NCBI GenBank assembly: GCA_014584695.1
Contig: JACTMI010000008.1
Coordinates: 15,333 to 79,332 of the forward strand
Source of the DNA: Acidobacteriota bacterium
GTDB lineage: Bacteria; Acidobacteriota; Thermoanaerobaculia; Multivoradales; JAGPDF01
Reading direction: 5' to 3'
Length of the DNA stretch: 64,000 nt
Numbering within the stretch: the first letter of the stretch is position 1; each line of letters begins with the position of its first letter. The notes beneath the pieces are model-generated. The model had not been told where the DNA came from. It did not search any database and was given only the letters and a program-made list of their open reading frames with translations. The position numbers and the translations under genes were made by a program. This document shows, one piece after another, positions 2,862 through 63,588 of the stretch.

Positions 2862-3029
2862 GGCGGGAGCTCCCCTTCGCAGTCCCCGATAGTCTAGTAA
2901 GCCAGGACGCCGAAATTGAACCCCTCCTGCTAGGCTGTTCCCGGCATTCTCCTAAAACACTTAACTCTCACCAGCAAGAGACACAACGATCTATCGTCCA
3001 GATCCACGCCACGCCCCAGCACGCCCCCG

Positions 3030-3660
3030 CATGCCCCCGTACGCCACCTCCATGCCACTCCACGCCGCTCTGCTCCGCTCCTTCCTGACCAGACTGCGCG
3101 CCGGCGACACCGAGGTGCCTGCTGCAGCGAGAAGCAAAGGCCTTCTGTTGAAGGGGGTGGCCTCCGCCACGAACGCGGCGAGCTCGCAACGGCTGCTGCA
3201 GCGGCGACACTCCTCCCCTTCTATGGAGCTTCTGAGCGCTTCCTCCCCAGCGAGCGCTCAGCTCGGAGAGCGACCCTCCCGAGGTGCGGTGGCTCGAGCG
3301 CAGGTGGTCGAGCAGGCGAAAAGCAAAAGCGTGCTGTTGAAGGGGGTGACCTCCGTCACGAAGGCGGCGAGCTCGCAACGGCTGCCGCAACGGCGACACT
3401 CCTCCCCTTCTATGGAGCTTCTGAGCGCTTCCTCCCCAGCGAGCGCTCAGCCCGGAGAGCGACCCTCCCGAGGTGCGGTGGCTCGAGCGCAGGTGGTCGG
3501 GCAGGCGAAAAGCAAAAGCGTGCTGTTGAAGGGGGTGACCTCCGTCACGACGGCGGCGAGCTCGCAACGGCTGCTGCAGCGGCGACACTCCTCCCCTTCT
3601 ATGGAGCTTCTTCATCGCCCGGCCCACCGATCCGTCCGTGCCCGCAGCGGAGGGCTGTGA
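3030..3660. repeat. Tandem repeat locus 1: about 3.4 copies of a ~180-bp unit (same family as loci at 35994, 62526 and 50555; inverted orientation here)
   Basis: Motif ctatggagcttctgagcgcttcctcccc recurs at 3231/3411/3591 (period 180). The reverse complement matches the locus-3 unit core (agaagctccatagaagggg...gtcacccccttcaacag). A GA-rich tract (3690-3790) flanks it. Confidence 0.8.
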
Positions 3661-3790
3661 CTCACCGTTGGGCAAGAGATGAGCGATGAAGGAAAGTCAG
3701 GTGATCAGGAATGCGGGGGAGTTGGAGAGTAGGAAAGAAGGCAGGTAGGAAAGTGGGCAGGTAGGAAAGAAGGCAGGGAAGGGGGAGCTC

Positions 3791-4291
3791 ATGAGCCCGG
3801 AGTCGGCACGGCTGCTCGATGGGACGGGATGGCGGATTCTGGAGGAGCTGCAGGAGGACGGGCGGATGACGTTCACGGAGCTCGGCCGGCGGGTGGGGCT
3901 GTCGACGCCGGCGGTGGCGGAACGGGTCCGGCAGCTCGAGGCGGCCGGGATCGTGCGCGGCTTTCGCGCCGAAATCGATCTCGCCCGCGTCGGCTTGCCG
4001 GTCCTCGCGGTGGTCCGCATGAGCGTCGTGGGCGACGTGCTCGGACGAATCACCGCCGTCGCCCAGGAGCTTCCCGAAGTGCTCGAGTGCCACCGCGGCA
4101 CCGGCGCCGACTCCTTCATCATGAAGGTGGCGGTCGCCTCGGTCGAACAGCTCGAGCGCTTGATCGACCGCCTGACCCCCTTCGGCACCACCTCGACCTC
4201 GATCGTCCTCTCGTCACCGGTGCCGCGGCGGACGCTGCGGGCCACGACGCCGCCAGCTCCCGCCCACCCACCGCCTCGCCGCCGACGCTGA
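3791..4291 (+). CDS. Lrp/AsnC-family transcriptional regulator
   Basis: 166 aa; an N-terminal HTH (LDGTGWRILEELQEDGRMTFTELGRRVGLSTPAVAERVRQLEAAGIV) plus a RAM/ACT-like C-terminal domain. ATG at 3791 follows GGGGGAG. Confidence 0.85.
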   Translation: MSPESARLLDGTGWRILEELQEDGRMTFTELGRRVGLSTPAVAERVRQLEAAGIVRGFRAEIDLARVGLPVLAVVRMSVVGDVLGRITAVAQELPEVLECHRGTGADSFIMKVAVASVEQLERLIDRLTPFGTTSTSIVLSSPVPRRTLRATTPPAPAHPPPRRRR

Positions 4292-5795: not shown

Positions 5796-6887
5796 GTGAA
5801 GATCCGCCTCGCCTTCGCCTCGCTCTCGCTCGCCGCCCTGGCGCTCGCCGCCTGCGGTGGGCGTCCGGCCGTGGTGCCCGCGACCGAACCGGCGCCCGTC
5901 TCGGCGCGCGTCGCGGTCGCCGAACGCGCCGCCACCGAGCGCCGCACCGAGCTCGCCGGCACCGTCGCGGCCGAGAGGTCGACCGCCGTCTCCTCCCGCG
6001 TCATGGCGCTCGTCACGGCCGTTCCCGTCGCGCTGGGCGACGAAGTCCGCGCCGGCCAGACGCTGGTCGCGATCGACCCCACCGCCGCCGAGGGCCAGGT
6101 CGCCCAGGCGCGCGGCGCGCTGGCGCAGGCCGAGGCCGCGCTCACTCTCGCACGGCGCAACCACGAGCGCTTCCAGGCGCTCGCCGCCACCCGGTCCGCC
6201 TCCGAGCTCGAGGTCGACCTCGCGCGCATGCAGCTCGAGCAGGCCGAAGGGGCGGTCGAGCAGGCCCGCGGCGCGGTCGCCGCGGCGAGCTCGGTGGCCC
6301 GCGAGTCGCGCGTCGTCGCGCCGTTCGCGGGGCGGGTCTCGGCGCGCCTAGTCGAGGTCGGCGATCTGGCGGCGCCCGGACGTCCGTTGGTGATGATCGA
6401 GTCGCGCGGCGGCCGGCGGCTGGTCGTGGCGGTGCCGGAGACCCTCGCCGGCGGCGCGGCCCTGGCCCCCGGCGCTCCGATCGCGGTGACTCTCGACGCC
6501 CAACCGACGCTCGGCGAGCTCGCCGGCCGCGTCGCCGAAATCTCCCCCGGTCCCGACCCGGTGACCCACGCCTACACCGTCAAGATCGACCTGCCCCTCG
6601 ACCCCGGCGTGGCGGTGCCGGCGGGCGCCGCCGGACGGGCGCACGTGCCGGCCGGCGAGCGCGCCACCGTGCGCGTCCCGCGCGAGGCGTTGATCGAGAG
6701 CGGCGGTCTCACCCTGGTCGTCGTGCGCGACGACGCGGGCAGGGCGCAGTCGCGCGTCGTCACCGTCGGTGCCGCCGCCGCCGACGGCCGCGTCGAGATC
6801 CTCTCCGGCCTCGCTGGCGGCGAGTCCGTCGCGCTCGGTCTCGCCGTGGCACCCGCCGCCGGCGCCCGCTTCGAGGTGGTGCCGTGA
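5796..6887 (+). CDS. RND efflux membrane fusion protein (periplasmic adaptor, HlyD/AcrA family), lipoprotein
   Basis: GTG start at 5796 after GAGGGAGA. Lipobox LAALALAACGG, biotinyl-lipoyl-like and beta-barrel MFP segments (GQTLVAIDP, VVAPFAGRVSARLVEVGDL). Its stop overlaps the next gene's start (GTGA). Confidence 0.85.
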   Translation: MKIRLAFASLSLAALALAACGGRPAVVPATEPAPVSARVAVAERAATERRTELAGTVAAERSTAVSSRVMALVTAVPVALGDEVRAGQTLVAIDPTAAEGQVAQARGALAQAEAALTLARRNHERFQALAATRSASELEVDLARMQLEQAEGAVEQARGAVAAASSVARESRVVAPFAGRVSARLVEVGDLAAPGRPLVMIESRGGRRLVVAVPETLAGGAALAPGAPIAVTLDAQPTLGELAGRVAEISPGPDPVTHAYTVKIDLPLDPGVAVPAGAAGRAHVPAGERATVRVPREALIESGGLTLVVVRDDAGRAQSRVVTVGAAAADGRVEILSGLAGGESVALGLAVAPAAGARFEVVP

Positions 6888-9800
6888 GCCCCGACGAATC
6901 GACGCGGCCCGGTGTCGGGAGCGGCGCGGGTCTGCCCGAGCGGACGCGACGCGAAGCGCTCCGGCTGCGCCAGACCCGCAAACCGCTCGGCTTCGCCGGC
7001 AAGGTCGCCGCCGCCTTCCTCGACTCGAAGCTGACCCCTCTTCTGGTCGTCGCGTCCCTGCTGCTCGGTGCCTTTGCGGTGCTGGTGACGCCGCGCGAGG
7101 AGGAGCCGCAGATCAAAGTGCCGATGGTCGATGTCTTCGTGCAGCTGCCCGGCGCCACCGCCGAGGAGGTCGAGCGCCGGCTGGTGACACCGCTCGAAAA
7201 GGCGCTGTTCGAGATCCCCGGCGTCGAGCACGTCTACTCGACCTCGCAGCCGTCCGGCGGCATGATCATCGTGCGCTACCTGGTCGGCACCGACCCGGAC
7301 CGCGCCGCGCTCGCCGTCCACACCAAGCTGGCGGAGAAGGCCGCCGAGCTGCCTGCCGGCGCGCCGCCGCCGTTGGTCGTGCCGCGCGGCATCGACGACG
7401 TGCCGGCGCTCGCCTACACCCTCTGGTCGGAAACGGCGACGCCGCTCGAGCTCCGGCAGGTCGCGCAAGAGCTGCGCGCCGAGCTGGTCCGCCATCCGCG
7501 GGTCGCCCAGGTCCACGTCTTGGGCGGAGTGCGGCGCGCGATCACGGTCCGCTTCGACCGCGAGCGCCTCGCCGCGCACCAGGTCTCGATCCTGCAGGTC
7601 TACCAGGCGCTCGCCGGCCTCGATTGGAAGCTGCCCGCGGGCAGCTTCGCCGCCGGCGACGTCGACACCGAGGTCGAAGTCGGCGCCCTCTTCCGCTCCG
7701 CCGACGAGGTCGCCGCCGCGGTGGTGGGCGTCTACCCGGACGGCGCCGGCGGCCGCCGCCCGGTCTACCTGCGCGACGTCGCCACCGTCGCCGACGGTCC
7801 CGACGAGCCCGCCCAATACGTCTGGATGACCGCCGGCGCCGCCGGCGCGCACAAGCGGCTGCCGGCCGGCCTCGACACCCCGGCGGTGACGCTCGCCATC
7901 GCCAAGAAGCCCGGCACCAACGCCGTCGACCTGGTCGCGGAGCTCGACGCCCTGGTGGCGCGGCTGGCGGGCCCGCTGCTGCCGGCCAACGTCGAGATCA
8001 CCAAGACCCGCGACTACGGCTTCACCGCCGACGAGAAGTCGAGCGAGCTGATGAAGCACCTCGGGCTCGCCACCCTCTCCGTGGTCTTGCTCATGGCGCT
8101 CGCCCTCGGGCGCCGCGAGGCGGTGGTGGTGCTGGTCGCCGTGCCGGTGACCCTGGCGCTGACCCTGGCCTCTTCCTACCTGTTCGGCTACACGCTCAAC
8201 CGGGTGACGTTGTTCGCGCTGATCTTCGCCATCGGCATCCTGGTCGACGACGCCATCGTTGTGGTCGAGAACATTCACCGCCACTTCCAGCTCGGCTGGA
8301 CCCACCCTCGCCACGCCACCGTCTACGCCACCGACGAGGTCGGCAACCCGACGATTCTCGCCACCTTCACGGTGATCGGCGCCCTGCTGCCGCTCGCTTT
8401 CGTCTCCGGATTGATGGGCCCCTACATGCGGCCGATCCCGATCAACGCCTCGGCGGCGATGCTCTTCTCGCTGATCGTGGCCTTCGTCGTCTCGCCGTGG
8501 CTCACCTACCGGCTGTTCCGCAAGCACGCCGAGGCGATGGCCTCGGGACAGCACGACAAGCCCGGCGCGGCGACCGAGCAGGAGGGCCGGCTCGACCGGC
8601 TCTACCAGCGGATCTTCGCGCCGTTGCTCGCCTCGCGCCTCAAGCGCTGGGCGCTGCTCGCCGGAGTCGCGATCCTGCTGGTCGCGTCGGTGATGCTCTT
8701 CCCGTTCCGCTTCGCGGCGGTCAAGATGCTGCCGCACGACAACAAGAGCGAGCTCCAGGTGGTGATCGACATGCCCGAGGGCACGACCCTCGAGCGGACC
8801 GCCGCGGTCGCCCGCGAGCTGGCGATGACCGTGCGCTCCCTGCCCGAAGTCACCGACGTCGAGACCTACGTCGGCACGTCGGCGCCGTTCAGCTTCAATG
8901 GCCTCGTGCGTCACTACTTCCTGCGCTCGGGCCCGCTGGTGGCCGACCTGCAGGTCAACCTGCTGCCCAAGCACGATCGCAAGCGCGCCAGTCACGACTT
9001 CGCCAAGCAGCTGCGGCCGCTGCTGGCGCCGATCGCCGCGCGGCACGGCGCCAACGTCAAGGTCACCGAGGTGCCGCCGGGGCCGCCCGTGCTGTCGACG
9101 CTGGTGGCCGAGGTCTACGCGCCGACTCCGGCCGAGCGCCTCTCCCTCGCCGAGCAGGTCAAGGCGATCTTCGAGAGCACGCCCGGCGTCGTCGACGTCG
9201 ACTGGTACGTCGAGGGCCCCGGTCCCAAGCTCGAGCTCGAAGTCGACCGCGAGAAGGCGGCGCGCGCCGGCGTCTCACCAGAGGTCGTCGCCCGCACGCT
9301 CCGGGTGGCGCTCGCCGGCGCCGACGCCGCCCACCTCTCGGATCCGCGCGCGCGCGAGCCGGTGCCGGTCACGCTCCGTCTCGACCGCGCCCAGCGCTCG
9401 GGCGCGGCGGAGCTGCTGGCGGTCGACGTCCACGGCGCGGATGGCCGCCTGGTGCCGCTCTCCGAGCTGGTGCGGCCGGTCGAGACGGTCCGGGCGCCGT
9501 TCGTCTACCACAAGAACCTGCGGCCCGTGACCTACGTGCTGGGTGACGTCGCCCCCACCAGGCCGGGCAGCTCCGCCGAGTCACCCGTCTACGCGATCGC
9601 CGACATGGGGGAGCGCATCGGCGCGCTGCGTGACGCCGCCGGCCGGCCGCTCGAGGTCCTCTTCTCCGGCCGCCCGGCCGACGGCACGCGCTCGGCGCTG
9701 GTCTGGGACGGCGAGTGGCAGGTGACGCACGACGTCTTCCTGGACATGGGGATCGCCTTCGCCGCCGTGCTGGTGCTGATCTACCTGCTGGTCGTCGGCT

Positions 9801-10264
9801 GGTTCCGCTCTTTCGTGACGCCGATGATCATCATGGCGCCGATCCCGCTGACGCTGATCGGCATCGTGCCGGCGCACGCCCTGGGCGGGGTCTTCTTCAC
9901 CGCCACCTCGATGATCGGCTTCATCGCGCTCGCCGGCATCATCGTGCGCAACTCGATTCTGCTGGTCGACTTCGTCAACCTCGAGCTCGAGGCCGGAGCG
10001 CCACTCGCGGAAGCCGTGACCAAGGCGGCCGCCGTCCGCTTCCGGCCGATCGCGCTCACCGCCGCGGCGCTGGTCGTGGGCGGCGTCGTCATCCTCCTCG
10101 ACCCGATCTTCCAGGGGCTCGCGGTGGCGCTCATCTCGGGCGTCGTGGTCTCGACCGCGCTCACCCTGGTGGTCATCCCGCTCCTCTACTACATGTACGT
10201 CTCGACCGTCGGCGTCGCAGCCGTCGCGCCCGCCGCCGACCGAGAATCCGGAGGTGAAGCATGA
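6884..10264 (+). CDS. RND family efflux transporter permease (AcrB/CzcA-like), about 1126 aa
   Basis: 12-TM RND topology with two large periplasmic loops. Motifs FAIGILVDDAIVVVENIHRH and NSILLVDFVN. GTG at 6884 overlaps the upstream stop; in frame with ORF 5402..10264. Confidence 0.9.
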   Translation: MSPDESTRPGVGSGAGLPERTRREALRLRQTRKPLGFAGKVAAAFLDSKLTPLLVVASLLLGAFAVLVTPREEEPQIKVPMVDVFVQLPGATAEEVERRLVTPLEKALFEIPGVEHVYSTSQPSGGMIIVRYLVGTDPDRAALAVHTKLAEKAAELPAGAPPPLVVPRGIDDVPALAYTLWSETATPLELRQVAQELRAELVRHPRVAQVHVLGGVRRAITVRFDRERLAAHQVSILQVYQALAGLDWKLPAGSFAAGDVDTEVEVGALFRSADEVAAAVVGVYPDGAGGRRPVYLRDVATVADGPDEPAQYVWMTAGAAGAHKRLPAGLDTPAVTLAIAKKPGTNAVDLVAELDALVARLAGPLLPANVEITKTRDYGFTADEKSSELMKHLGLATLSVVLLMALALGRREAVVVLVAVPVTLALTLASSYLFGYTLNRVTLFALIFAIGILVDDAIVVVENIHRHFQLGWTHPRHATVYATDEVGNPTILATFTVIGALLPLAFVSGLMGPYMRPIPINASAAMLFSLIVAFVVSPWLTYRLFRKHAEAMASGQHDKPGAATEQEGRLDRLYQRIFAPLLASRLKRWALLAGVAILLVASVMLFPFRFAAVKMLPHDNKSELQVVIDMPEGTTLERTAAVARELAMTVRSLPEVTDVETYVGTSAPFSFNGLVRHYFLRSGPLVADLQVNLLPKHDRKRASHDFAKQLRPLLAPIAARHGANVKVTEVPPGPPVLSTLVAEVYAPTPAERLSLAEQVKAIFESTPGVVDVDWYVEGPGPKLELEVDREKAARAGVSPEVVARTLRVALAGADAAHLSDPRAREPVPVTLRLDRAQRSGAAELLAVDVHGADGRLVPLSELVRPVETVRAPFVYHKNLRPVTYVLGDVAPTRPGSSAESPVYAIADMGERIGALRDAAGRPLEVLFSGRPADGTRSALVWDGEWQVTHDVFLDMGIAFAAVLVLIYLLVVGWFRSFVTPMIIMAPIPLTLIGIVPAHALGGVFFTATSMIGFIALAGIIVRNSILLVDFVNLELEAGAPLAEAVTKAAAVRFRPIALTAAALVVGGVVILLDPIFQGLAVALISGVVVSTALTLVVIPLLYYMYVSTVGVAAVAPAADRESGGEA

Positions 10265-14724: not shown

Positions 14725-15231
14725 CTAGGGCGGCGAGGGGAAGATGCCGAACAGCGAAATGATGAAATTGACGCAGAGGTACGGCTGGAAGTTGGTGTGG
14801 GGTTGCGAGCCCCCGGTGGCCGCGATCGCCTGCGGGTTCATGTTGACCGAGCTGGTCGCGAGCGTGTTGTAGATGCTGCCGGCGAGCGAAGTGGCGAGCA
14901 CGTTGTTCTGCGGGCTGGTCGCCTGACCGGCGGCGCCGCTGGTCATCTTCGGATGCGAATGCGCTGGAACCTGATTGACCGTCAGCGTGATCTCTTCCGC
15001 GCCGCCGGTCTCGGCGAGGATGAAGCCGTTGCCTTGGTGGATCGGCAGGCGGCCCCTCAGGTCCGGAACGGCGAACGTGCTCTGGCCGTCCCCTCCGTAG
15101 GTCGTGCCGATCAGCTGGAACAGCGTCTCGTTCTCGGAGATCGGCAGCAGTTGGCCCTCACAGAGCATCCAGCCGGCGGGAGCGAAGTTCCCGCCGAACA
15201 TGCGAATCTCGCCGACATACGGTTGCGCCAT
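14725..15231 (-). CDS. Phage tail-collar domain protein, paralog 2
   Basis: 168 aa; MAQPYVGEIRMFGGNFAPAGWMLCEGQLLPISENETLFQLIGTTYGGDGQSTFAVPDLRGR ... QVPAHSH ... GGSQPHTNFQPYLCVNFIISLFGIFP. AAGGAG RBS; 8-10 bp gaps to its neighbours. Confidence 0.85.
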   Translation of the reverse strand: MAQPYVGEIRMFGGNFAPAGWMLCEGQLLPISENETLFQLIGTTYGGDGQSTFAVPDLRGRLPIHQGNGFILAETGGAEEITLTVNQVPAHSHPKMTSGAAGQATSPQNNVLATSLAGSIYNTLATSSVNMNPQAIAATGGSQPHTNFQPYLCVNFIISLFGIFPSPP

Positions 15232-15241
15232 GGCCGCTCCT

Positions 15242-15751
15242 TCAGGTCGGGCTCGGGAAGATGCCCTGGAGCGCGATCATGAAGTTGAGTGTCAGGAAGG
15301 GCTGCAAGTTGAGGTGGGCCTGCGAGCCTCCCGCGTTGAGAACCGCGCCAGAGTGGGCGGCAGCCAGGCTCGCCGGCGGACCGTAGATGCTACCGACCGC
15401 CGCCGAGGCGACCGCGAGAAAGGCGTTGGTCGGGTCGGTCGCGTTGGCGCTGGCGCCGACGCCGCTGGCGACGTGGGTGTGCAGCGGCAGCTCGGCGATC
15501 GAGAGCGTGTGCGCCTGCTCGCCAGCCCGCTCGCCGAGCGTGTGTCCCGACCCGGCGTGGATCGGAGTCCGCGCTCGCAGATCGGGCAGGGCGAAGTTGG
15601 TCTGGCCGTTGCCACCGTAGGTCGTGCCCAGCAGGGAGAAGAGCGCCTGGTTCTGGTTGATGGGCAGCAGCTGACCATTGCACTGCGCCCACCCCTGCGG
15701 CACGAAACCGAACGACGCGATCCGGATCTCGCTCAGAAACGGCTCTGCCAT
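15242..15751 (-). CDS. Phage tail-collar domain protein, paralog 3
   Basis: 169 aa; MAEPFLSEIRIASFGFVPQGWAQCNGQLLPINQNQALFSLLGTTYGGNGQTNFALPDLRAR ... ELPLHTH ... GGSQAHLNLQPFLTLNFMIALQGIFP. GGAGGAGGGGGA RBS. Confidence 0.85.
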   Translation of the reverse strand: MAEPFLSEIRIASFGFVPQGWAQCNGQLLPINQNQALFSLLGTTYGGNGQTNFALPDLRARTPIHAGSGHTLGERAGEQAHTLSIAELPLHTHVASGVGASANATDPTNAFLAVASAAVGSIYGPPASLAAAHSGAVLNAGGSQAHLNLQPFLTLNFMIALQGIFPSPT

Positions 15752-15790
15752 CTCGTTGTCCCCCTCCTCCGTCGAGTGTCGCCGACGCCG

Positions 15791-18700
15791 TCAGAACATC
15801 GGCCCGCTCGGTTGGAGGCAGGCACCCGGCACGACGTCGATCGTCGAACCGACCTCCACGTTCACGAACGGCGGACTGGTCGTCGGCGAGTTCGCGCCAC
15901 CGAGATTGCCGCGCGCTCCCAGCAGTGTCGCGCAGGCCGCCGAAGGACTTCCGACCGGGCAGGTGCCCGATCCGACCAGGTTGAAGTCGCCGGCGAACTC
16001 CTCGAGCGAGTAGCCGTCCGGGGCCCGGTTGTTCTGCAGGTCGAGGCACAGCGTTCCGCCGCCGCCGGTGGGCAGGATTCGAGACTCGAAGGTCTGGCCG
16101 GGATCGAAGCCGGCATCGTGCTCGGCGAAGAGGTCGTTGATGATCGTCAGATCGAGGACGGCGCCGTTCTGGAGGTCGGCGAGCGCGCGCAGGCCGGGTC
16201 CGCAGAAGCCGGCCGCGCCCGGACAGAGCTGACCGGCGCCGAGGTTGCAGCCGCCGCCGGCGGAGGACGGATCGGTGCTGCAGAACGCGCCCTTGATCCC
16301 GAGGTTGTTGCGGAACATGACCCGCGCGCTCACCGTGCTGTCGGCGCGCAAGAACCAGGGCGCGTTGCCCGGCGTGTCGAAGGTGTTGTCCTCGACCAGA
16401 ACATTCCAGGTGCCATTGGTCATCGCCAGAGTGAACTGGCCGACGCCGCCCGAAGCGTTGGCGATCTCGTCGAAGTAGTTGCCGTCGACGACGACGTTCC
16501 AGGTCATCGTGTCGGTCCCCAGGGAGCCGACCAGCACGCCGCCCTGCGGGAAGTCGAAGTCGCCACCGATGCCGCTCGAGTGGTCGTTGACGGTGAACTC
16601 GTTCTGTCCGATCACCACGTCGACGTTGCCGGTCGCCCCGGCGTCGCCGACCACCCGGATCGAGCCGATGGCGCAGTTGAGGAAGTCGTTGTCGAGCGCG
16701 TTGTTGACGCGGTCGCCGATGGTCACCGAGGCATTGCCGGCGCCCTGCACCGTGACGTCGATGCAGTGGCCGCCGACCGAGGAGCGCGGCCCGGAGGTGA
16801 ACTCCTTGTAGGCATGGTGGAAGTTGTTGTTGGTCGCGGTCATGGTCAAGGTGCCGCCGGTGACGAAGAAGTCGATCAGCTCGCCGCCGCGCTGGAGCGT
16901 GCTGTTGGTGACCGAGACCGGACCGCGGATGCCGAGGATGCGAACCATCCCCTCGTTGTTGGAGTCACCGACGCCCGCGACGTGGAAGCGGTTGCTGTCC
17001 TCGAACGTCACGTTGTTGAGCGTCAGGCCGTTCCACACCGTGGCCGCGCCGCCCGCCAGCGTGGCGCCGTGGATCGCGTTGTCGCTGATCCGGCGGATGA
17101 TGACACCGTCGAGCGTCAAGCCGCCGTCGACGTCCTGACCGTGGATGGCATCGTGCCCGCTGATCGTGTCGATGCCCCCGCCCATGTTGCCGAGATCCTC
17201 GAAGATCATGTGGCGCAGGGTCACCGGGCCGTCGGTGTTGTTCATCGTCATGCCGTCGGCGGTCTTGTTGTCGATCGTGCCGCCGGTGCCCGCGGAGCCG
17301 GTGCCGGTGACGTGGAACGGTCCGCTCCCGGTGTTGGCGAGGATGATCGCGGTGTTGCCGCTGGCGCCGGCCGAGTTGATCGAACGGAGCGTGACGCCGT
17401 CCGGCGTGATCGTCGTGTTGCTGAGGTTCAACACCGTCGCCGTGGTGGTGCTCAGGGCGTTGACCAGCGGCCCGGTGCTCCCCGGGTTGCACGGGCTCTC
17501 GTCGCAGATCGAGAGCCGGCCGCCGCTGGTGGCGGTGAACGCCGGGTTGGCACCCGTCGAGGCGGACAGGCCCCCGGCGAAGACGGTCGTGGACGCGGCG
17601 CCGTTGGAGTTGAGCAGGATGCCGCTGCCGGTCTCGGTGATCGCTCCGGTGAACGACACCGTGTCGCTGGTGCGCGAACTGATCGCCACCGCGCGGCCGT
17701 TGTTGTTGGTGACCGGGATTCCGAGCGTCACGTGCCCGCTGCCACCGGTGACGACGACCGCATCGCCCGAGGCCCCGGCCGGATCGCTGATCGCCCCGGA
17801 GTTGACCGAGAGCGCCGTGGCGCCGACGCCGCCGAAGGCGTTGACCAGCGACAGGCCGGTGGTGGTCGAGTTGGTGCTCTCCAGGAAACCGAGCGGCAGC
17901 GTCACCGAGGCGTTGTTGACGCTCACCGCCGGACCGCCGTTCGAATCGATCGTCGCGACGCCGGCCGGCACCACCAGGCGGAAGCCGGTACCGGCGCCGG
18001 CGTTGAGCGCACCGGTCGAAGTGACGCCGAGGCCGGTGCCGGCGTCGTTGAAGATGTCGAGATCGGTGAAGCCGAGGTCGCCGAGGACGTTGGTGAGCAG
18101 GAGGCCGTGGGTGCCGACGCCGTTGCCCGACTGACCGATCAGGGTCACCCCGCCCGCGACCTGCTGGATCGGCAGGCCGGGGACGGCGTCGAAGGTCGCG
18201 CCCGCGACCTCGATGCCCGAGCCGCCGGTGTTCCCGTGGATCACGTTGTCGTCGAAGCGGGTGATCGTGAGCGGGCCGCCGGTTCGCGTCACGTCGATGC
18301 CGCGGCTGCCGGCGGTCACCGTGTTGTCGTGAATCGCCAGAGTGAGCGCGCCGGTGCCGCCATGGTTGACGTCGACTCCCTCCTCGCCCGAGCCCCGCAC
18401 GACGTTCTCACCGATGGTCAGCGATCCCGAGCCAGCGAACGCCGGGTTGGTGGTCAGGTCGATCCCGTTCGCGGCCACGCTCGACAGGCTCAGCCCGACG
18501 ATCTCGGTCGGAATCACGTCCGTCGCCGACACCGCACTGTTGCCGGCGCCACTGCGATCGACGAGCGGGCGGCTCCCCGGTGTACCGGAATGGAGCACCG
18601 TCGGCGAGCCGTTGCCGTTGAGGCCGACCGGAATCGACAGCCCGGCGTGCTCGCCGACCAGGCGCTGGCCGCTCTTGAGCGCGATGCCGGCGTCCTGGCC

Positions 18701-21139
18701 GGTCGAGGTGCCGTCGCCGAAGAAGACGAAGATCCAGTCGTTCGCCGCCGACGCCGTCTGCGCCTCGACCAGCGTGTCGAACGGGTCGAGCGAGCGGCCG
18801 AGGCCGCCGGCCGGGGCGTTGTTGCGGACGTACCAGACCCGTTCGAAGAAGTCGATCGTCACCGTGCCCGTCACGGTCGCGAGACCGTCCGAAACGTCGT
18901 AAGTGAAGCTGTCGGGCGACGTGCGGCCGGGCGGCGACGTGTAGCTGAAGCTGCCGTCGGCGGCGACGATCACGACCGCGCCCGCCGTCGCCGCGGCGAG
19001 CGACGCCGTCAACGCCGCGGGTCCGTCCGGATCGGTGTCGTTGGCGAGCAGGTTGCCGGCGGCGTAGACATAGGGGCCGTCGCCGTCGGGGCCGGGATCG
19101 ACGAGCGCGACCCGCAACCGGGTGTTCGAAATGGTCTGGAACGACTCGCCCGTGACCACCGGCGGGTCGTTGACCGGCGTGACCGTGATCGTCGAGGTCA
19201 CCGGCAGGGAGCCGTCGATCCCATCGCTCGCGAGCCAAGTCACCGTCCGGTCGAGCGCCGATGGGGCATCGGAGTTGTTGAAGTAGGTCACGCCGCGCAG
19301 CGCCGTCTGATAGGCCGCGAGCGTGGCGTTGCCGGTCAGCGTCAGCGTGCCGGTCGCCGGCACGAAAGTCGGCGAGAGTCCCGCGCAGGGGGCACCGCAG
19401 GCCAGGATGTCCTGGCCGTTCTGGTAGTTGCCGCTGATCTGGGCGCTCGCCGAAACGAGTTGCGCGTGGTCGGCGTCGGCGACGGTGATCGTGGTGTCGA
19501 TCGGCGTCGCGGGGTCGTTCTCCGTGTAGGCGAGCGTGGCCCCGGCGGAGAGCACCGGCCGATCGTTGACCGAGACCACCTGCACGGTCGCCGTCGCCGG
19601 CGCGCTGGTCTCGACGCCGTCGCTCGCCCGGAAGGCCACCGTGCGATCGAGGGTCGACGGGTCTTCCGAGGTGTTGTGGTAGCGGACGGCCCGCAGCGCG
19701 GTCTGGTAGTTGGCGACCGTTGAGGTGCCGGAGAGCGTCAACGTGCCGGTGGCGGGCACCCAATTGCCGGTGATGCCGAGCTGGTCGACGAAAGAGAGTA
19801 CGTCCTCGCCGTTCACGTAGTTGGCGGTGATCTGTGCCGTCGCGCCGACGAGCAGCAAGCTGTCGCCGTCGGTGACGGTGAGCGCCGGGTCGATCGCGGT
19901 CGCCGGATCGTTCTCTGTGTAGACGAGGGTACCGCCGGCGATCACCACCGGGGGCAAACGGTCGATGATGACATAAGCGAACGCGGATTGCGGCCCGATC
20001 GGATTGCCCAGGGCGTCGAGCGTCGGATCGCCCGCCGTCGGCACGAGCGTGTAGGAAAAAGCGTCGGTGCCCTGGAATCCCGCGGGCGGCGTGTAGACGA
20101 AATGTCCGTCGGCGCCGACGTCGACGGTTCCGCCCTGCGCGGTCGCGGATCCGCTCACGGCGATGGCCGCCAACGGATTTCCGTCGGCGTCCGAGTCGTT
20201 GGCGAGGAGCGACGCCACCAGGGCGGCGGAGCTGTCGAGAGGCGTCGAGGTCACCGTTCGATACTGGTCGCGGCGCGCGAGCGGCGTCGTCCGCACCGAG
20301 GCCGGGACCAACTGGAGGTTCGGCTCGAGCAGGTCGGCGAGCTCGACGTCCGTCGCCGCGCCGGCGCTGTTGGCGATCGTCACCCGATAGCGGAACGTGT
20401 CTCCGGGCTCGACGCCGGCGGGTGGGAGAGGTCCACCGCCCGCGGCGAGGTCGACCTTGGCGGCCGCGATCGCCGGGGAACCGGTGGCGATCCGGTCGAG
20501 GACCAGCCCCTGCTCCGTGCCGGCGATGCGCAGCTCGATCGCGCCGACGTCGGTCAGGTCGGCCGGGCCGAGAGCGCCGGGCACCGTGACCAGCTCCGCG
20601 AACGAGATGAACAGCGAGGTCGGCGCGCCGATCGCGGGCAACACGCGGCCGGCCCGCGAAGCGTGATCGGCGTCCTGGTGAACGACCACGACCATGTGCG
20701 CTCCCGCGGTGGCTGAAGCGATCGAGAGACGGATCCCGCCGGCGGTGCCGCCATCGGTCAGGTCGACGCCGCCGAGACCGGTCGGATCGAGGGCCAACGG
20801 GTCGTTATCGCCGTCCCAGACGAGGTCGATCTCGCCCCGGGTATCGGGCGTCGTGTCGGTCACCGCGAAGCTCAGCACGCCGCCCGCCACGCCCGCCGAC
20901 ACGGGCCCCACGCCCGCGAGTCTCCGCACCACCAAGTCCCGGCTCGTGCCGAGAATGTCCGCGCCGGCGGTGACGACTGTCGACGCGCCGCCGGGGGGAT
21001 CGGTGAGCGTCGCCTGGTTGGTCGTGAGCTCGTCGATGACGACCTCGGTCCACGCCGGAGTCGCCCATCCGAGCACGGCGAGGCCGACGAGAACGCGCCA
21101 ACCGGTCTTCACCCGGGTGGCGTGAGCGCGGCCGCTCAT
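15791..21139 (-). CDS. Giant secreted exoprotein (1782 aa): signal peptide, several cadherin-like/Ig-like repeats, C-terminal right-handed parallel beta-helix region
   Basis: Signal peptide WRVLVGLAVLGWATPAWTEV. Four repeats of ~100 aa with (L/V)xYTENDPAT..., VSVNDRPV and VTPVNDPPV motifs (cadherin-like). Then many NxxI/VxG/DNxV beta-helix rungs (DNTVTAGSRGIDVT, DNVIHGNTGGSGIEV, NNNFHHAY). The start ATG is coupled (ATGA) to the upstream gene's stop. Confidence 0.8.
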   Translation of the reverse strand: MSGRAHATRVKTGWRVLVGLAVLGWATPAWTEVVIDELTTNQATLTDPPGGASTVVTAGADILGTSRDLVVRRLAGVGPVSAGVAGGVLSFAVTDTTPDTRGEIDLVWDGDNDPLALDPTGLGGVDLTDGGTAGGIRLSIASATAGAHMVVVVHQDADHASRAGRVLPAIGAPTSLFISFAELVTVPGALGPADLTDVGAIELRIAGTEQGLVLDRIATGSPAIAAAKVDLAAGGGPLPPAGVEPGDTFRYRVTIANSAGAATDVELADLLEPNLQLVPASVRTTPLARRDQYRTVTSTPLDSSAALVASLLANDSDADGNPLAAIAVSGSATAQGGTVDVGADGHFVYTPPAGFQGTDAFSYTLVPTAGDPTLDALGNPIGPQSAFAYVIIDRLPPVVIAGGTLVYTENDPATAIDPALTVTDGDSLLLVGATAQITANYVNGEDVLSFVDQLGITGNWVPATGTLTLSGTSTVANYQTALRAVRYHNTSEDPSTLDRTVAFRASDGVETSAPATATVQVVSVNDRPVLSAGATLAYTENDPATPIDTTITVADADHAQLVSASAQISGNYQNGQDILACGAPCAGLSPTFVPATGTLTLTGNATLAAYQTALRGVTYFNNSDAPSALDRTVTWLASDGIDGSLPVTSTITVTPVNDPPVVTGESFQTISNTRLRVALVDPGPDGDGPYVYAAGNLLANDTDPDGPAALTASLAAATAGAVVIVAADGSFSYTSPPGRTSPDSFTYDVSDGLATVTGTVTIDFFERVWYVRNNAPAGGLGRSLDPFDTLVEAQTASAANDWIFVFFGDGTSTGQDAGIALKSGQRLVGEHAGLSIPVGLNGNGSPTVLHSGTPGSRPLVDRSGAGNSAVSATDVIPTEIVGLSLSSVAANGIDLTTNPAFAGSGSLTIGENVVRGSGEEGVDVNHGGTGALTLAIHDNTVTAGSRGIDVTRTGGPLTITRFDDNVIHGNTGGSGIEVAGATFDAVPGLPIQQVAGGVTLIGQSGNGVGTHGLLLTNVLGDLGFTDLDIFNDAGTGLGVTSTGALNAGAGTGFRLVVPAGVATIDSNGGPAVSVNNASVTLPLGFLESTNSTTTGLSLVNAFGGVGATALSVNSGAISDPAGASGDAVVVTGGSGHVTLGIPVTNNNGRAVAISSRTSDTVSFTGAITETGSGILLNSNGAASTTVFAGGLSASTGANPAFTATSGGRLSICDESPCNPGSTGPLVNALSTTTATVLNLSNTTITPDGVTLRSINSAGASGNTAIILANTGSGPFHVTGTGSAGTGGTIDNKTADGMTMNNTDGPVTLRHMIFEDLGNMGGGIDTISGHDAIHGQDVDGGLTLDGVIIRRISDNAIHGATLAGGAATVWNGLTLNNVTFEDSNRFHVAGVGDSNNEGMVRILGIRGPVSVTNSTLQRGGELIDFFVTGGTLTMTATNNNFHHAYKEFTSGPRSSVGGHCIDVTVQGAGNASVTIGDRVNNALDNDFLNCAIGSIRVVGDAGATGNVDVVIGQNEFTVNDHSSGIGGDFDFPQGGVLVGSLGTDTMTWNVVVDGNYFDEIANASGGVGQFTLAMTNGTWNVLVEDNTFDTPGNAPWFLRADSTVSARVMFRNNLGIKGAFCSTDPSSAGGGCNLGAGQLCPGAAGFCGPGLRALADLQNGAVLDLTIINDLFAEHDAGFDPGQTFESRILPTGGGGTLCLDLQNNRAPDGYSLEEFAGDFNLVGSGTCPVGSPSAACATLLGARGNLGGANSPTTSPPFVNVEVGSTIDVVPGACLQPSGPMF

Positions 21140-21948
21140 CGACCGGCCTCCCCCTCGCCCGGGCGACGGCGCAGCCTACGCGCGGCGAGCGCGGCGAGCG
21201 CGAACGCGAGCGCTGCGGCACCGAGCGGCCCGAGCGCTGGAATCGCCTGGAGCGGCGGCGCGCCGCCGGCGGCCCGGATCATCCAGTTGCCGGGCTGGAA
21301 GGAATCGATCAGGCCGAAGTACTGGCCGGGAGCTGGCGTCAGCTGCGGCGGATCTGGCGGATCGCCCGCCCAGATCGCGAGCCACGAGCGGCCCTGCGAC
21401 AGCCCGGTGTCGATCGCCGCCGGGAAGGTCGGGGGAGTCACGCCGCTGGTGATGAAGCGCGGCACCACGCCGACCAGCAGGTCGCTACCGGCCGGTACGA
21501 AGACCGGCGGATCGATCGGATAGACCGACGGTGTCACGCCGTCGAGCGCCTGAATGGCCGCGCCGAGAGTACGCGCGAGAGCCGCGCCGTTGGCCGGGTT
21601 GCCATCCGCGTCGACGTAGATGGCGATCTGGACCGCGTCGCCGACGGCCATCTGAGGATCGGGCAGAAAGAGCACCTCGACCGCGTCGAGGTCGAAGTTG
21701 CCGGGGGGAGAGAATCGGTTGAACCAGAGGAACTGCCGTGCGTTCTGGACCGCGACACCGACCGCGCCTTCGGCGCTGCCGTCGTCGAGCGACAGCACGG
21801 TCGAGCCCACGCCGAGCGTGGTCGGCGCCTCCGCCGAGCGTGCCGCGGGCCGGAAGGTCACGTCGGCACCCGCGGCGGGAAGTGCCCCCAGCGCCAGCAG
21901 CGCGCCGAACAGTACCGCCACCCCAGTCGATCCCGAGTCCTTCTTCAT
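21136..21948 (-). CDS. Secreted protein with PEP-CTERM-like C-terminal sorting signal (270 aa)
   Basis: MKKDSGSTGVAVLFGALLALGALPAAGA signal peptide. The C-terminus ...IPALGPLGAAALAFALAALAARRLRRR is a Pro-rich motif plus a TM helix plus an Arg cluster, typical of exosortase substrates. Confidence 0.6.
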   Translation of the reverse strand: MKKDSGSTGVAVLFGALLALGALPAAGADVTFRPAARSAEAPTTLGVGSTVLSLDDGSAEGAVGVAVQNARQFLWFNRFSPPGNFDLDAVEVLFLPDPQMAVGDAVQIAIYVDADGNPANGAALARTLGAAIQALDGVTPSVYPIDPPVFVPAGSDLLVGVVPRFITSGVTPPTFPAAIDTGLSQGRSWLAIWAGDPPDPPQLTPAPGQYFGLIDSFQPGNWMIRAAGGAPPLQAIPALGPLGAAALAFALAALAARRLRRRPGEGEAGR

Positions 21949-36446: not shown

Positions 36447-36720
36447 CCCCCCTCCCCCTCCCCCTCCCCCTCCCCCTCCCCTTCCCCTTCCCGTTCCCCT
36501 TCGCCTGCCCCTTCTCATTCCCCATTCCGCTCCTTTTCCCACCTTTCACCGCCCCCGCTACCGCGCAGCTCAACTCAGTCAACAACGCCCCCCCTCCCAC
36601 CCCTTCTATGGAAGCCTTTTCTTTTCTCTTCTTTTCTCTTCTCCGCTCTTCTCTTCTCTTCTCTTCTCTGCGCCTCTCCTGACTCTTCTTCCACCTCCTT
36701 CCCTTACTCTCTTCTCGCTC
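36447..36720. repeat. Polypyrimidine tract of about 275 nt beginning with (CCCCCT)5(CCCCTT)2; a G-rich quadruplex-capable complement on the minus strand
   Basis: The plus strand is >90% C/T from 36447 to ~36720. It also contains an inverted partial copy of the repeat core (cccttctatggaagc = reverse complement of gcttccatagaaggg) at about 36598-36680. Confidence 0.85.
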
Positions 36721-50317: not shown

Positions 50318-50372
50318 CGGGCTTCGAGACCCACGCCCCTTCGCGGCGCCAGCTTCGAACTCCGCACAAAAT

Positions 50373-50418
50373 GGGGACAGGCACGTAATAAGTATTGCGT
50401 GCCTGTCCCCGTTTCTCG
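50373..50418 (+). terminator. Rho-independent terminator hairpin, potentially bidirectional
   Basis: ggggacaggcacg-taataagtattg-cgtgcctgtcccc (13-bp perfect stem) followed by gtttctcg. On the opposite strand it is preceded by attttgtg (U-rich). It lies 56 nt after the ACAD stop. Confidence 0.7.
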
Positions 50419-50554
50419 CGGAGGAAGAACCGCGAAGCGCCGGCCTCGCTGGTGCGGCTCCACTCGAGGACGCACCTGTCGCCCTCGCCTCGCCGGACAC
50501 GAGCCCGGCTTTTCCATTCTCTGGAGCTTCTTGGAGGCCGCGAGGCCGAGGCAG

Positions 50555-50600
50555 CTTCGTTTCCGCGAGGAGAAGCTCCATCGAAGGAAAGACCACTACA
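50555..50600. repeat. Solitary copy of the repeat-family core (cgaggagaagctccatcgaaggaaag) with an upstream inverted partner (ctggagcttcttgg)
   Basis: Matches the AGAAGCTCCAT(T/C)GAAGG core of loci 1-3. It lies in a ~490-bp non-coding gap between convergent genes. Confidence 0.5.
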
Positions 50601-50909
50601 GAGCATCCGCAGCGGATCACGGGAGCCCTGGCCTTGGCCGCGACCTCGGCCGCGACCGAGGCTGCGCTCGACCTCCGTTGCCACGCCGAGGCCGCCGCGC
50701 AGCGCCGCGCCACCTCTGCCACGGTGGTCACGATCTGGGCTGTTCTCTTCTAGGGCGCTTTTCTGACGTCGCCACCCCGATGCAGTTCAGCACCTGCGCG
50801 GTGACACCCCCTGGACGGAAGCGATCTCCATCCAGGGGGGAACGGCGGCCTCGCGGGCGCGGGTGTGGGGTGAGGGTGGTCGGCCGCTCTCTCGACGCGC
50901 GCGCCCGGT

Positions 50910-61612: not shown

Positions 61613-62374
61613 ATGACCGGGCGGGCCGAGGCGCCCGGCACGCGGCCCGCTCGGCCCCCGGGGGGCGAGGCGCTCCGTTGGCTGGTGGCGCCCTGGACGC
61701 TGCTGGTCTTCTTTCCCCTGGTCGTGCTGACGACGGCGTTCTGGGGGGCGGTGACGGTCCTGATCGCGCTGGTGAGCCGGCGCGCCGCCTTTCACACCGG
61801 CGAGATCTGGGCCGCCTGTCTCACCTGGGCGAGCTTCGTGCGGGTCCGCGTGCGCGGCCGCGAGCAGGCGCCGCGAGGCAGCTCCTACGTGATCGTCTGC
61901 AACCACCAGGGCTTCTACGACATCCTGGCGCTCTACGGCTTCCTGCGCCGGCAGTTCCGCTGGGTGATGAAAGCGGAGCTGCGCCGCATCCCGTTCCTGG
62001 GCTGGGGCTGCGCCGCGATCGGCCACATCTTCGTCGATCGCCGCGACCCGCAGCAGGCGATAGCCAGCCTCGAAGCGGCCAAGCCGCAACTCGAAGGCGG
62101 CGTTTCGGTCCTCTTCTTTCCCGAGGGCACGCGCAGCCGCGACGGCCGCCTGCTGCCGTTCAAGAAGGGCGCCTTCGTCATGGCCCGTCAGCTCGGCCTC
62201 CCCATCCTCCCGGTCACCCTCGTCGGCTCCGCCGGAGTCCTCCCCCGCGGCCGGCTCTTTCCCCGCCCCGGCACGATCGAGATCCACTTCCACCCGCCCA
62301 TCGACCCCGCCTCGGCTCCCAACGCCGAGCAGCTCGCCCAGCTCGCGCGAGCCGCCGTCGAGTCGGCGCTCTGA
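61613..62374 (+). CDS. plsC: 1-acyl-sn-glycerol-3-phosphate acyltransferase (lysophospholipid acyltransferase)
   Basis: HX4D motif VCNHQGFYD, FVDR, FPEGTRS, and the PlsC block IPILPV. Confidence 0.8.
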   Translation: MTGRAEAPGTRPARPPGGEALRWLVAPWTLLVFFPLVVLTTAFWGAVTVLIALVSRRAAFHTGEIWAACLTWASFVRVRVRGREQAPRGSSYVIVCNHQGFYDILALYGFLRRQFRWVMKAELRRIPFLGWGCAAIGHIFVDRRDPQQAIASLEAAKPQLEGGVSVLFFPEGTRSRDGRLLPFKKGAFVMARQLGLPILPVTLVGSAGVLPRGRLFPRPGTIEIHFHPPIDPASAPNAEQLAQLARAAVESAL

Positions 62375-62525
62375 GCGACCACTCCTCCGTGTCTCCGCTC
62401 CAGGCACACACTCTCCGGGAGTGAACCCTCGGAGCGAACCGAGAGGAGAGGACGATGGCGATCCGGATCGTGCAGCTCGGCAGTCCGCGGGCCGCGGGCC
62501 CGGCTGGTACGGCCAGGTGCGATGA

Positions 62526-63060
62526 CGGCTGCGACCGAAGAGAAAAGCTCCATTGAAGGGAGCAGTAGTCGCCGCCGATTCGAGCGTTGCGAGTTCGCCA
62601 CCGCCGTTCCTGTAGTCACCCCCCTTCAACAGAACGCCTTTCACTTCGCCTCGCCCCCATCCGGAGCTCCGTCGGAGCCGCAGATGCAACAGTTGCGACC
62701 AGGTGCGACAGCCGCGGCGACCGAAGCGAGAAGCTCCATTGAAGGGAACGTGTGTCGCCGTCGAGCCGCGCTTTGCGAGCTCGCCACCACCGTGCCTGGG
62801 GTCACCCCCATCAACAGAACGCTTTTCTCTACGACTCGCCCCCATCCAGAGCTCCGTCGGAGCCGCAAGCGCGGCTGGTGCGACCAAGTGCATCGTCCGC
62901 GGCGACGGAAGCGAAAAGCTCCATTGAAGGGAGCGGTAGTCGCCGCCGGTTCGAGCGTTGCGAGCTCGCCACCGCCATTTCAGGAGTCACCCCCTTCAAC
63001 AGAACGCTTTTCTCTGTGCCTCGTCCTCCACGCACGCTCCCGTCGGTCCAGAGGCGCCGC
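62526..63060. repeat. Tandem repeat locus 3: about 3 copies of a ~180-bp unit, each a MITE-like module with ~20-nt imperfect terminal inverted repeats (AGAAAAGCtccaTTGAAGGG ... CCCTTCAAcagaacGCTTTTCT)
   Basis: Unit starts (gaccgaag(a/c)gagaagctccattgaaggg) at about 62531, 62718 and 62895. Periods are 187 and 177, not multiples of 3. Confidence 0.8.
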
Positions 63061-63195
63061 GCGCGCTTCGACAGCTGGCGAAACCACGAGCGGCCGATGC
63101 TCGAGGCTCCGTTGATAGGCTCCAGGGCAGATCGGCTGATCGCCAGTTCGTGTCGAGTTGGGCTCCCGGTGCGGGTCCGGGGGAGAGGAGGGGCC

Positions 63196-63588
63196 ATGGC
63201 TGCCGACCGCGGCGCGCCGCAGAGTATCGACGCCTATATCGCGGGCTTCGCGCCCGAGGTGCGCGGATTGCTGGAGCAGATCCGCCGGACGATCCAGATC
63301 GCCGTCCCGGAGGCGACCGAGGCGATCAAGTACCAGATTCCGACCTTCGTCCTGCACGGCAATCTCGTCCACTTCGCGGCCTATCCGGGCCACATCGGGC
63401 TCTACCCGGCGCCGCGGGAGGCGCCGGAGTTTCGCCACGAGCTCGAAGCCTACGCGGGGGGCAAGGGAACGGTCCGCTTCCCGCTCGACCAGCCGATTCC
63501 GTTCGACCTCGTCACCCGCATCGCGCGGCACCTGGCGGCCCGGAACGTGGCGAGAGCGGCGGCGAAATCGAAGCCGAGGGCGCGATGA
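63196..63588 (+). CDS. DUF1801 (YdhG-like) domain protein
   Basis: 130 aa, MAADRGAPQSIDAYIAGFAPEVRGLLEQIRRTIQIAVPEATEAIKYQIPTFVLHGNLVHFAAYPGHIGLYP. Strong RBS GGGGGAGAGGAGGGG. Confidence 0.7.
   Translation: MAADRGAPQSIDAYIAGFAPEVRGLLEQIRRTIQIAVPEATEAIKYQIPTFVLHGNLVHFAAYPGHIGLYPAPREAPEFRHELEAYAGGKGTVRFPLDQPIPFDLVTRIARHLAARNVARAAAKSKPRAR

Follow-up and report, generated by a model that had tools for sequence, protein, structure and literature searches.

A tandem intergenic array between plsC and a DUF1801–crp gene pair as a candidate member of a hairpin-forming repeat family in Thermoanaerobaculia

The intergenic DNA between a plsC-type acyltransferase gene and the gene for a DUF1801 protein holds a tandem cluster of three intact repeat units and one decayed unit, here called locus 3. 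The window, that is, the whole 64,000-nt stretch of DNA that was analysed, has a GC content of 71% and otherwise consists of ordinary chromosomal genes, including those for an RND pump, PBP1C, a P-type ATPase, fatty-acid oxidation, MMPL and DUF1329/DUF1302 proteins. Homologues of the plsC gene are named Thermoanaerobaculia or Acidobacteria by their sources, the nearest being only about 70% identical. At its other end, the DUF1801 gene runs into a gene for a Crp/Fnr-type regulator (PF00027 and PF13545, in identical Logan contigs), whose ATG (63585) overlaps the DUF1801 stop codon. Pfam gene positions agree with a preliminary description of this DNA, which had placed the repeats between plsC and the DUF1801 gene. 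The region is laid out as follows.

61613–62374, plus strand: plsC-type acyltransferase gene (PF01553; homologues named 1-acyl-sn-glycerol-3-phosphate acyltransferase)
62501–62538, plus strand: partial leading spacer (3′ half), which aligns with the 3′ halves of spacers 1 and 2; start of the array (Tandem Repeats Finder)
62539–62646, plus strand: unit 1 core, covariance-model match of 109.3 bits, arms at 62541–62560 and 62622–62642
62647–62724, plus strand: spacer 1, with a small hairpin GCTCC-GTC-GGAGC; 81% identical to spacer 2
62725–62831, plus strand: unit 2 core, 108.5 bits, with an A·A in the inner helix and a G·U in the outer helix
62832–62909, plus strand: spacer 2 (spacer alignment)
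62910–63016, plus strand: unit 3 core, 111.7 bits, both helices fully Watson–Crick
63017–63125, plus strand: decayed spacer 3 (46–49% against spacers 1 and 2) and the left arm of a fourth-unit remnant
63196–63588, plus strand: DUF1801 protein gene (PF08818)

The tandem units of about 180 bp described earlier are real: Tandem Repeats Finder gives a period of 185 with 2.8 copies over 62501–63015 (79% matches, score 679), and a repeat search finds three copies, 186 and 185 nt apart from start to start. Each unit is thus 185 or 186 bp long, including a core of about 107 nt. The core is bounded by two arms, read from the sequence as a purine-rich left arm, GARAAGC-TCCA-TTGAAGGG, and a right arm, CCCTTCAA-CAGAAC-GCYTTTC. 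The left arms lie at 62541–62560, 62727–62746 and 62912–62931, with AAGCTCCATTGAAGGG exact in all three, and the right arms at 62622–62642, 62807–62827 and 62992–63012, with 1, 1 and 0 mismatches to CCCTTCAACAGAACGCTTTTC. The mirrored arm, previously put about 65 nt downstream, is present at a measured gap of 61 nt. The stem of unit 3 is Watson–Crick at all of its 7 + 8 positions, and in its RNAfold structure both arm helices enclose the element (z = −2.2); the defects elsewhere are a single A·C in unit 1 and one G·U plus one A·A in unit 2. Internal boxes are conserved with minor variation: GTCGCCG and GTCACCCCC occur in every unit and TTGCGAGCTCGCCACC is unchanged in units 2 and 3 and differs at one position in unit 1, but TGTCGCCG, which the preliminary description had listed as a box, is complete in unit 2 only.

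The arms are not a product of chance. The left-arm 16-mer, allowing up to three mismatches, has 13 matches in the window where 0.21 would be expected, a count that none of 100 shuffles reached, and the right-arm 21-mer occurs 6 times against 0.00 expected. All 13 left-type matches in the window fall in intergenic DNA.

Downstream of unit 3, the remnant arm GAGGCTCCGTTGATAGG (63102–63118) matches at 11 of 14 positions and lies 190 nt past the unit 3 arm; the repeat search lists a further copy at 63062–63079. From the end of the last intact right arm (63013) it is about 167 nt to the ribosome-binding site (RBS) of the DUF1801 gene (63180–63193) and 183 nt to its ATG (63196), rather than the roughly 135 bp to the RBS first estimated. 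Because of the decayed fourth unit, repeat-derived sequence extends closer to the gene than that. No sigma-70-like site is predicted in 62300–63300. Six Logan contigs from different runs, metagenomic and of the same species, carry an identical plsC gene and an identical 821-bp intergenic region, with the array 100% identical, leaving no population-level polymorphism to exploit; gene callers left the 821-bp region empty in all six.

The family occurs at four loci in the window; its members outside locus 3 are as follows.

3131–3615, minus strand: locus 1, three cores (3131–3237, 3320–3426 and 3509–3615) with a period of 189, 95% identical, 112–118 bits
35987–36364, plus strand: locus 2, 4.7 copies of an 80/81-nt unit (Tandem Repeats Finder), with the left-arm motif AGCTCCAGTTAAGGG alone in common
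36597–36619, minus strand: solo left-type arm GGCTTCCATAGAAGGGG, inverted, with a long purine tract before it on the same strand
50510–50765, both strands: divergent pair of left-type arms, 50510–50533 on the minus and 50566–50588 on the plus strand

Locus 1 lies between an Lrp/AsnC gene (3791–4291) and a beta-eliminating-lyase-like gene; its cores are on the opposite strand from those of locus 3, at 69–76% identity. Locus 2 folds into three small hairpins. The plus-strand arm at 50566–50588 closes a 195-nt element that ends with TAGGGCGCTTTTCT at about 50765 and whose interior (50566–50765) is unrelated to those of loci 1 and 3.

Other repeats and signals accompany these loci. Directly upstream of the Lrp/AsnC RBS (3778–3793, GAAGGGGGAG-N3-ATG), a purine-rich 16-mer, GTAGGAAAGAAGGCAG, stands three times in tandem at 3729–3777; a short purine-rich repeat similar to it fills the interior of an element at 6397–6572 of L008, a metagenome contig introduced below. 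Tandem 10-mers (CACGCCCCCG, about 3.6 copies with variants) occupy 3010–3070, between locus 1 and the start of the beta-eliminating-lyase-like gene. The frame of that gene (189–2951, minus strand) is open for about 890–920 codons, with coding-like GC3 throughout and a Beta_elim_lyase domain at residues 479–854 only, so that it has either an N-terminal extension of unassigned role or two genes in frame. Between the locus 2 array and the solo inverted arm lies low-complexity intergenic DNA (36447–36678), with about 80 nt of (CCCCT/CCCCTT)n, G-quadruplex-prone on the minus strand, followed by (TTCTC)n microsatellites. A canonical bidirectional intrinsic terminator, AAAATGGGGACAGGCACG...CGTGCCTGTCCCCGTTTCTC, follows an acyl-CoA dehydrogenase gene at 50365–50414; relative to the arm at 50510–50533 it is about 120 nt downstream in the minus-strand sense, so that a short transcript of that strand is conceivable. 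Three repeats of about 60 nt built on GGGGACA...TGTCCCC hairpins similar to this terminator occur at 9720–9930 of another contig, L010. Elsewhere in the window, two neighbouring phage-tail-collar-domain genes stand beside a gene for a cadherin-like/Big_9-repeat protein of about 1790 amino acids (14728–21175, minus strand).

Copies outside the window were found in three Acidobacteria/Thermoanaerobaculia lineages, always in intergenic DNA. The first comprises an Acidobacteria metagenome-assembled genome (MAG) contig (L007) and the near-identical metagenome contig L008, which gave the sole matches of a loose arm-to-arm pattern; they carry a tandem triplet with a 133-nt period and a single 172-nt copy between convergent genes. 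A strict two-box pattern matched nothing among genome contigs, a collection that lacks the window's own genome. The other two, L010 and L019, were retrieved through their plsC homologues and not through the repeat: L010 has copies on either side of the plsC homologue, and L019 has two loci, a single copy and a tandem pair. With about two loci per 20 kb in each of these contigs (the window has four in 64 kb), their density extrapolates to hundreds of copies per genome. A co-directional gene lies downstream of about half of all copies but not of the other half, and some copies lie in convergent regions. The roughly 107-nt core is a dispersed, non-coding and multi-copy module at other loci and in other genomes, which fits the earlier view of a repeat element.

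The distribution is patchy. Six related contigs of 13–21 kb each (L009, L011, L013, L016, L020 and L021) have no copies, yet their plsC genes are 62–72% identical to that of the window, similar to the carriers, such that plsC identity does not separate the two groups; in the syntenic L009, the next gene begins 62 nt after plsC. A match to a viral contig, L022, was set aside as chance, since it has 56–62% GC, looks coding by eye and lacks the purine tract and the GC-TTTC arm. Interiors differ, and so a covariance model of the whole core finds the ‘type A’ cores and a single L008 copy but no other members. Between L007 (3290–3345) and L008 (8240–8300), the upstream gene and the first repeat unit are conserved, and the roughly 60–90 nt between the upstream stop codon and that unit differ completely, which suggests recombination or turnover at the edge of the array.

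Across lineages, the 5′ arm reads R-tract-GC-T(T)CCA-TWGAAGG followed by purines (also seen as T-N-GAAGG), and the 3′ arm is pyrimidine-rich, CCCCTTCAAC-AGNAN-GC-TTTYC, with a C-run, TTCAAC, about 6 nt, GC and TTTYC. The two pair as a 7-bp outer and an 8–9-bp inner helix around an asymmetric internal loop whose bases are conserved. The ~20-nt imperfect inverted arms of the preliminary description are therefore present as an inverted repeat but do not form a symmetric terminal inverted repeat (TIR): they differ systematically, TCCA-TAG on the left against CAGNAN on the right, and this asymmetry is kept across lineages. Element length stays within 99–105 nt in four lineages with interiors that cannot be aligned, apart from outliers of 172, 195 and 256 nt. 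Among the six window cores and two L008 cores, mean column identity is 76%, and in locus 1, locus 3 and L008 the conserved positions are grouped (runs test, p about 0.001), with blocks at the arms, at GTCGCCG(C)CGG and at a central 6–10-bp palindrome. Lineages whose plsC genes share only about 68% identity have a 14-nt arm motif that is almost the same in all. This near-identity, the blockwise conservation and the fixed length despite unrelated interiors suggest a functional constraint beyond that of a selfish repeat, and in this they count against the interpretation favoured below. The family also occurs as solo arms (36597–36619 and 50510–50533), as inverted pairs 61–215 nt apart and as clusters (loci 1–3, L008 and L019).

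Read on the minus strand, the left arm at 62918–62934 and 62547–62563 forms a small terminator-like hairpin, GCTCC-CTTCAAT-GGAGC, followed by TTTTC, and copies in L010 and L019 have the stem variants CTTCC/GGAAG and CTTCC/GGGAG. Intrinsic termination was considered as a role and rejected: the hairpins are weak, with 5 bp and a T-tract, occur in two of the three units and lie on the strand opposite the neighbouring genes, and the orientation of the elements does not follow that of upstream genes.

The arrays themselves grew in place. In units 1 and 2 of locus 3, the spacers are as similar to each other as the cores are (81% and 80% identical), and the spacers of locus 1 are unrelated to those of locus 3. 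Homology of spacers within but not between arrays indicates local duplication of a core together with its adjacent spacer, and not the repeated insertion of a mobile element.

Several known systems resemble this family in organization. REP, BIME and REPIN elements of Enterobacteria, Pseudomonas and Stenotrophomonas (PMC3733652, PMC3116915) are built on a REP unit, a 20–40-nt imperfect palindrome with a GTAG or CGTC tag, and occur as singletons, as inverted pairs foldable into one hairpin with a variable spacer of 20–100 nt, and as tandem clusters with flanking DNA (PMC3733652). Like them, the family is short, non-coding, strictly intergenic and, by extrapolation, of high copy number; its arms stand alone, in inverted pairs or in tandem clusters together with flanking DNA, and it shows no target-site duplications and is patchy among related genomes. 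Unlike REPs, its arms are purine- or pyrimidine-rich and not clear 20–40-nt palindromes themselves (some copies of the left arm fold locally, but with only 5 bp, GCTCC/GGAGC or CTTCC/GGAAG), the difference between the two arms is conserved, and there is no conserved GTAG or CGTC tag, GTAG occurring only in units 1 and 3 of locus 3. Further, no RAYT (HUH Y1 transposase) was found in the window or in the Pfam tables of the retrieved loci. We know of no REP family described in Thermoanaerobaculia.

A second group comprises Correia/NEMIS elements of Neisseria, ERIC/IRU of Enterobacteria and RUP/BOX of pneumococcus, which are 100–200 bp long, have inverted-repeat ends, lie between genes in either orientation and can fold as long hairpins if transcribed; BOX is modular, with a tandemly repeated middle module, and Correia and RUP have target-site duplications and sharp TIR termini. 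To our knowledge, the family has no sequence similarity to any of them. It differs from Correia and RUP in lacking target-site duplications and sharp termini in 12 elements, and from all of this group in that whole units, including unrelated spacer DNA, are tandemly repeated. In its organization, then, the family resembles REP/BIME/REPIN or palindromic MITE-like repeats, whereas by sequence it does not pass the tests that define either classical REPs or MITEs with TIRs and target duplications.

Our leading interpretation, to which we give about an even chance, is that locus 3 belongs to a lineage-specific, non-coding, hairpin-forming intergenic repeat family of uncultured Thermoanaerobaculia that is REP/BIME- or MITE-like. 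The module would be an imperfect palindrome of about 100–105 nt, with two short helices, a conserved asymmetric loop and a variable interior, and would reach new sites through a trans-acting activity that recognizes the arms or the folded hairpin. We infer mobility from dispersal, patchy distribution and random orientation; the conserved asymmetry would point more to an enzyme that recognizes single strands or hairpins than to a TIR-binding DDE transposase. Against such mobility stand the absence of target-site duplications in 12 elements, of a clean empty-versus-filled site and, in the window, of a transposase or RAYT. Arrays would then expand by slippage or unequal recombination. Where transcribed, the hairpins could act as REPs do, as barriers at mRNA 3′ ends or as insulators between plsC and DUF1801–crp. 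The family has not been described before, yet is of an ordinary kind for bacterial repeats; a full-text literature search with the motif string brought up unrelated work on eukaryotes, hosts and parasites only, and a search for non-coding RNAs in Thermoanaerobaculia yielded no paper.

Of the other interpretations, the one that survives best, as a possible though doubtful account, takes each core to be a structured non-coding RNA, either encoded as a small RNA (sRNA) gene or cut out of a longer transcript as a cis-acting element. A Shine–Dalgarno (SD)-like purine motif, GAAGGGG(A)GG, which contains GGA, may be sequestered by the anti-SD-like CACCCCCUUC, and the RNA could titrate ribosomes or a CsrA-type protein, as a sponge or decoy, or else regulate the downstream genes. 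The motif resembles genuine RBSs of this genome, such as that of the Lrp gene, and the internal-loop nucleotides, the blockwise conservation and the element length are all kept across lineages. In a hand-registered alignment of the arms of 12 copies, 85% of cells pair, compared with 41–62% when the partner is slid. The outer helix shows a few compensatory changes (in copies L8b, L8c and L19a), and about 7 G·U against 4 A·C, counted by eye, slightly favour the strand on which the purine arm comes first. However, covariation in this alignment is not above that of shuffles, 56 of 500 of which reach its score, with double changes at 4 of 15 pairs; on the inner helix, GAAGG/CCTTC, covariation is silent because the sequence is invariant.

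Predicted folds are similarly divided. Most elements are closed by both arm helices, but their z-scores are mostly unremarkable, ranging overall from +1.1 to −3.6 with most between 0 and −2, and the antisense strand often folds better than the sense strand. One L019 copy, L19b, folds with z = −3.4, whereas most copies score −2.2 to +1.1 on the purine-first strand; unit 1 of locus 3 reaches −3.6 on the opposite strand. Interior folds are not common to loci 1, 3 and L008, and the long stem-loop RNA that the preliminary description had offered as an option has weak support. Locus 3 has no predicted promoter-like site or sense-strand terminator, copies are oriented at random with respect to genes, solo arms and arrays of arms alone also occur, and the implied hundreds of copies would be unusual for an sRNA. 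With Rfam 15, the whole window gave nothing at gathering score, and the four loci gave only chance-level matches at permissive E values (at most 5–10).

Multi-copy regulatory sRNAs do exist, such as the CsrB/RsmZ sponges and the tandem ‘cuckoo’ sRNAs of alpha-proteobacteria, with exposed C-rich or GGA motifs. The family shares with them tandem intergenic copies and GGA-containing SD-like and C-rich anti-SD-like motifs, but has no promoter or terminator per unit, no Rfam match and no consistent orientation; there are only one or two such motifs per 185 nt, mostly predicted to be paired and not in loops.

A bolder variant, which we consider unlikely, is that the elements form an abundant class of structured RNA or single-stranded DNA hairpin, specific to Thermoanaerobaculia, recognized by a dedicated protein and conserved for its function. 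The RBS-like arm UCCAUAGAAGGGG(A)GG could then be held by the anti-SD-like CCCCCUUCAAC around the asymmetric loop, and the protein that recognizes the loop could be a novel hairpin-specific mobilizing enzyme, an RNA-binding regulator or a ribosome decoy. If so, function and not ancestry would account for the ~100-nt length and the blockwise conservation.

A classical MITE—a non-autonomous cut-and-paste element whose ~20-bp TIRs are bound by a DDE transposase encoded elsewhere—was the reading preferred in the preliminary description, and we now regard it as improbable. The elements are indeed small, non-coding, multi-copy and dispersed, have inverted-repeat ends and are absent from the syntenic relative L009. 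Several lines of evidence speak against it. First, target-site duplications are absent: the flanks of 12 elements have no direct repeats above chance (longest match in 14-nt flanks 2–4 nt; p = 0.17–1.0 against shuffles) and tend instead to extend the palindrome, with complementarity running past the arms and no sharp terminus. Second, the arms are asymmetric (TCCA-TAG versus CAGNAN), conservedly so. Third, interiors within one genome are unrelated, as between 50566–50765 and loci 1 and 3. Fourth, the tandem units share spacers, which marks them as duplications and not insertions. Finally, none of the about 35 open reading frames (ORFs) of the 64-kb window has a transposase domain.

There is similarly little probability, in our estimate, that the units serve as an array of DNA sites to which a regulator or nucleoid protein binds, thereby controlling the neighbours (DUF1801–crp at locus 3, Lrp and the beta-eliminating lyase at locus 1), the arms and the central palindromes (GCGAGCTCGC; CTCGAG and GTCGAC in L008) being the operators. 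Several arrays do lie in regulatory intergenic regions beside regulator genes (Lrp/AsnC, 3791–4291; Crp, 63585 onward), the type-A cores of two species have a 6–10-bp palindrome at their centre, and conservation is at the level of sequence and not of covariation. However, copies also lie between convergent genes or antisense between co-directional ones (L008 6397–6572, L010 11057, L019 6204 and 50.5 kb in the window), where no promoter is expected, the central palindrome is missing from many family members and the neighbouring genes have no functional theme. None of the attC-like, sigma-54, FNR/CRP, IHF, K-turn/loop-E and TRAP motifs, compared by eye with consensus sequences, fits the register or is conserved.

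That the units encode small repeated peptides, for instance from minus-strand ORFs after the strong SD-like GAAGGGGGTGA, is barely credible and, for both strands, effectively refuted: open frames do run through the repeats in both directions, the 189-nt period of locus 1 keeps the frame and an SD-like motif precedes ATG or GTG on the minus strand in two of three locus 3 units, but the 185/186-nt periods of locus 3 break the frame, start codons are not conserved, GC3 of the repeat ORFs is about 67–75% compared with 80–96% in window genes, the ORFs have no Pfam match and no homologue, nor a called self-copy, among 5.8 billion proteins, and gene callers left the region empty in the six contigs noted above.

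Returning to the lineage-specific repeat family as the leading interpretation, the gap of about 820 bp between plsC and DUF1801–crp would be mostly repeat DNA. An effect of the array on DUF1801–crp expression is plausible for that reason, to judge from the sequence, and its DNA may insulate or modulate both transcription units rather than hold a dedicated regulatory RNA. More broadly, the array would represent a previously undescribed repeat family in a poorly studied, uncultured class of acidobacteria, of use for masking and annotating MAGs, for explaining assembly breaks and for strain typing, and it would offer a handle on the enzyme or binding protein that recognizes the conserved asymmetric hairpin.
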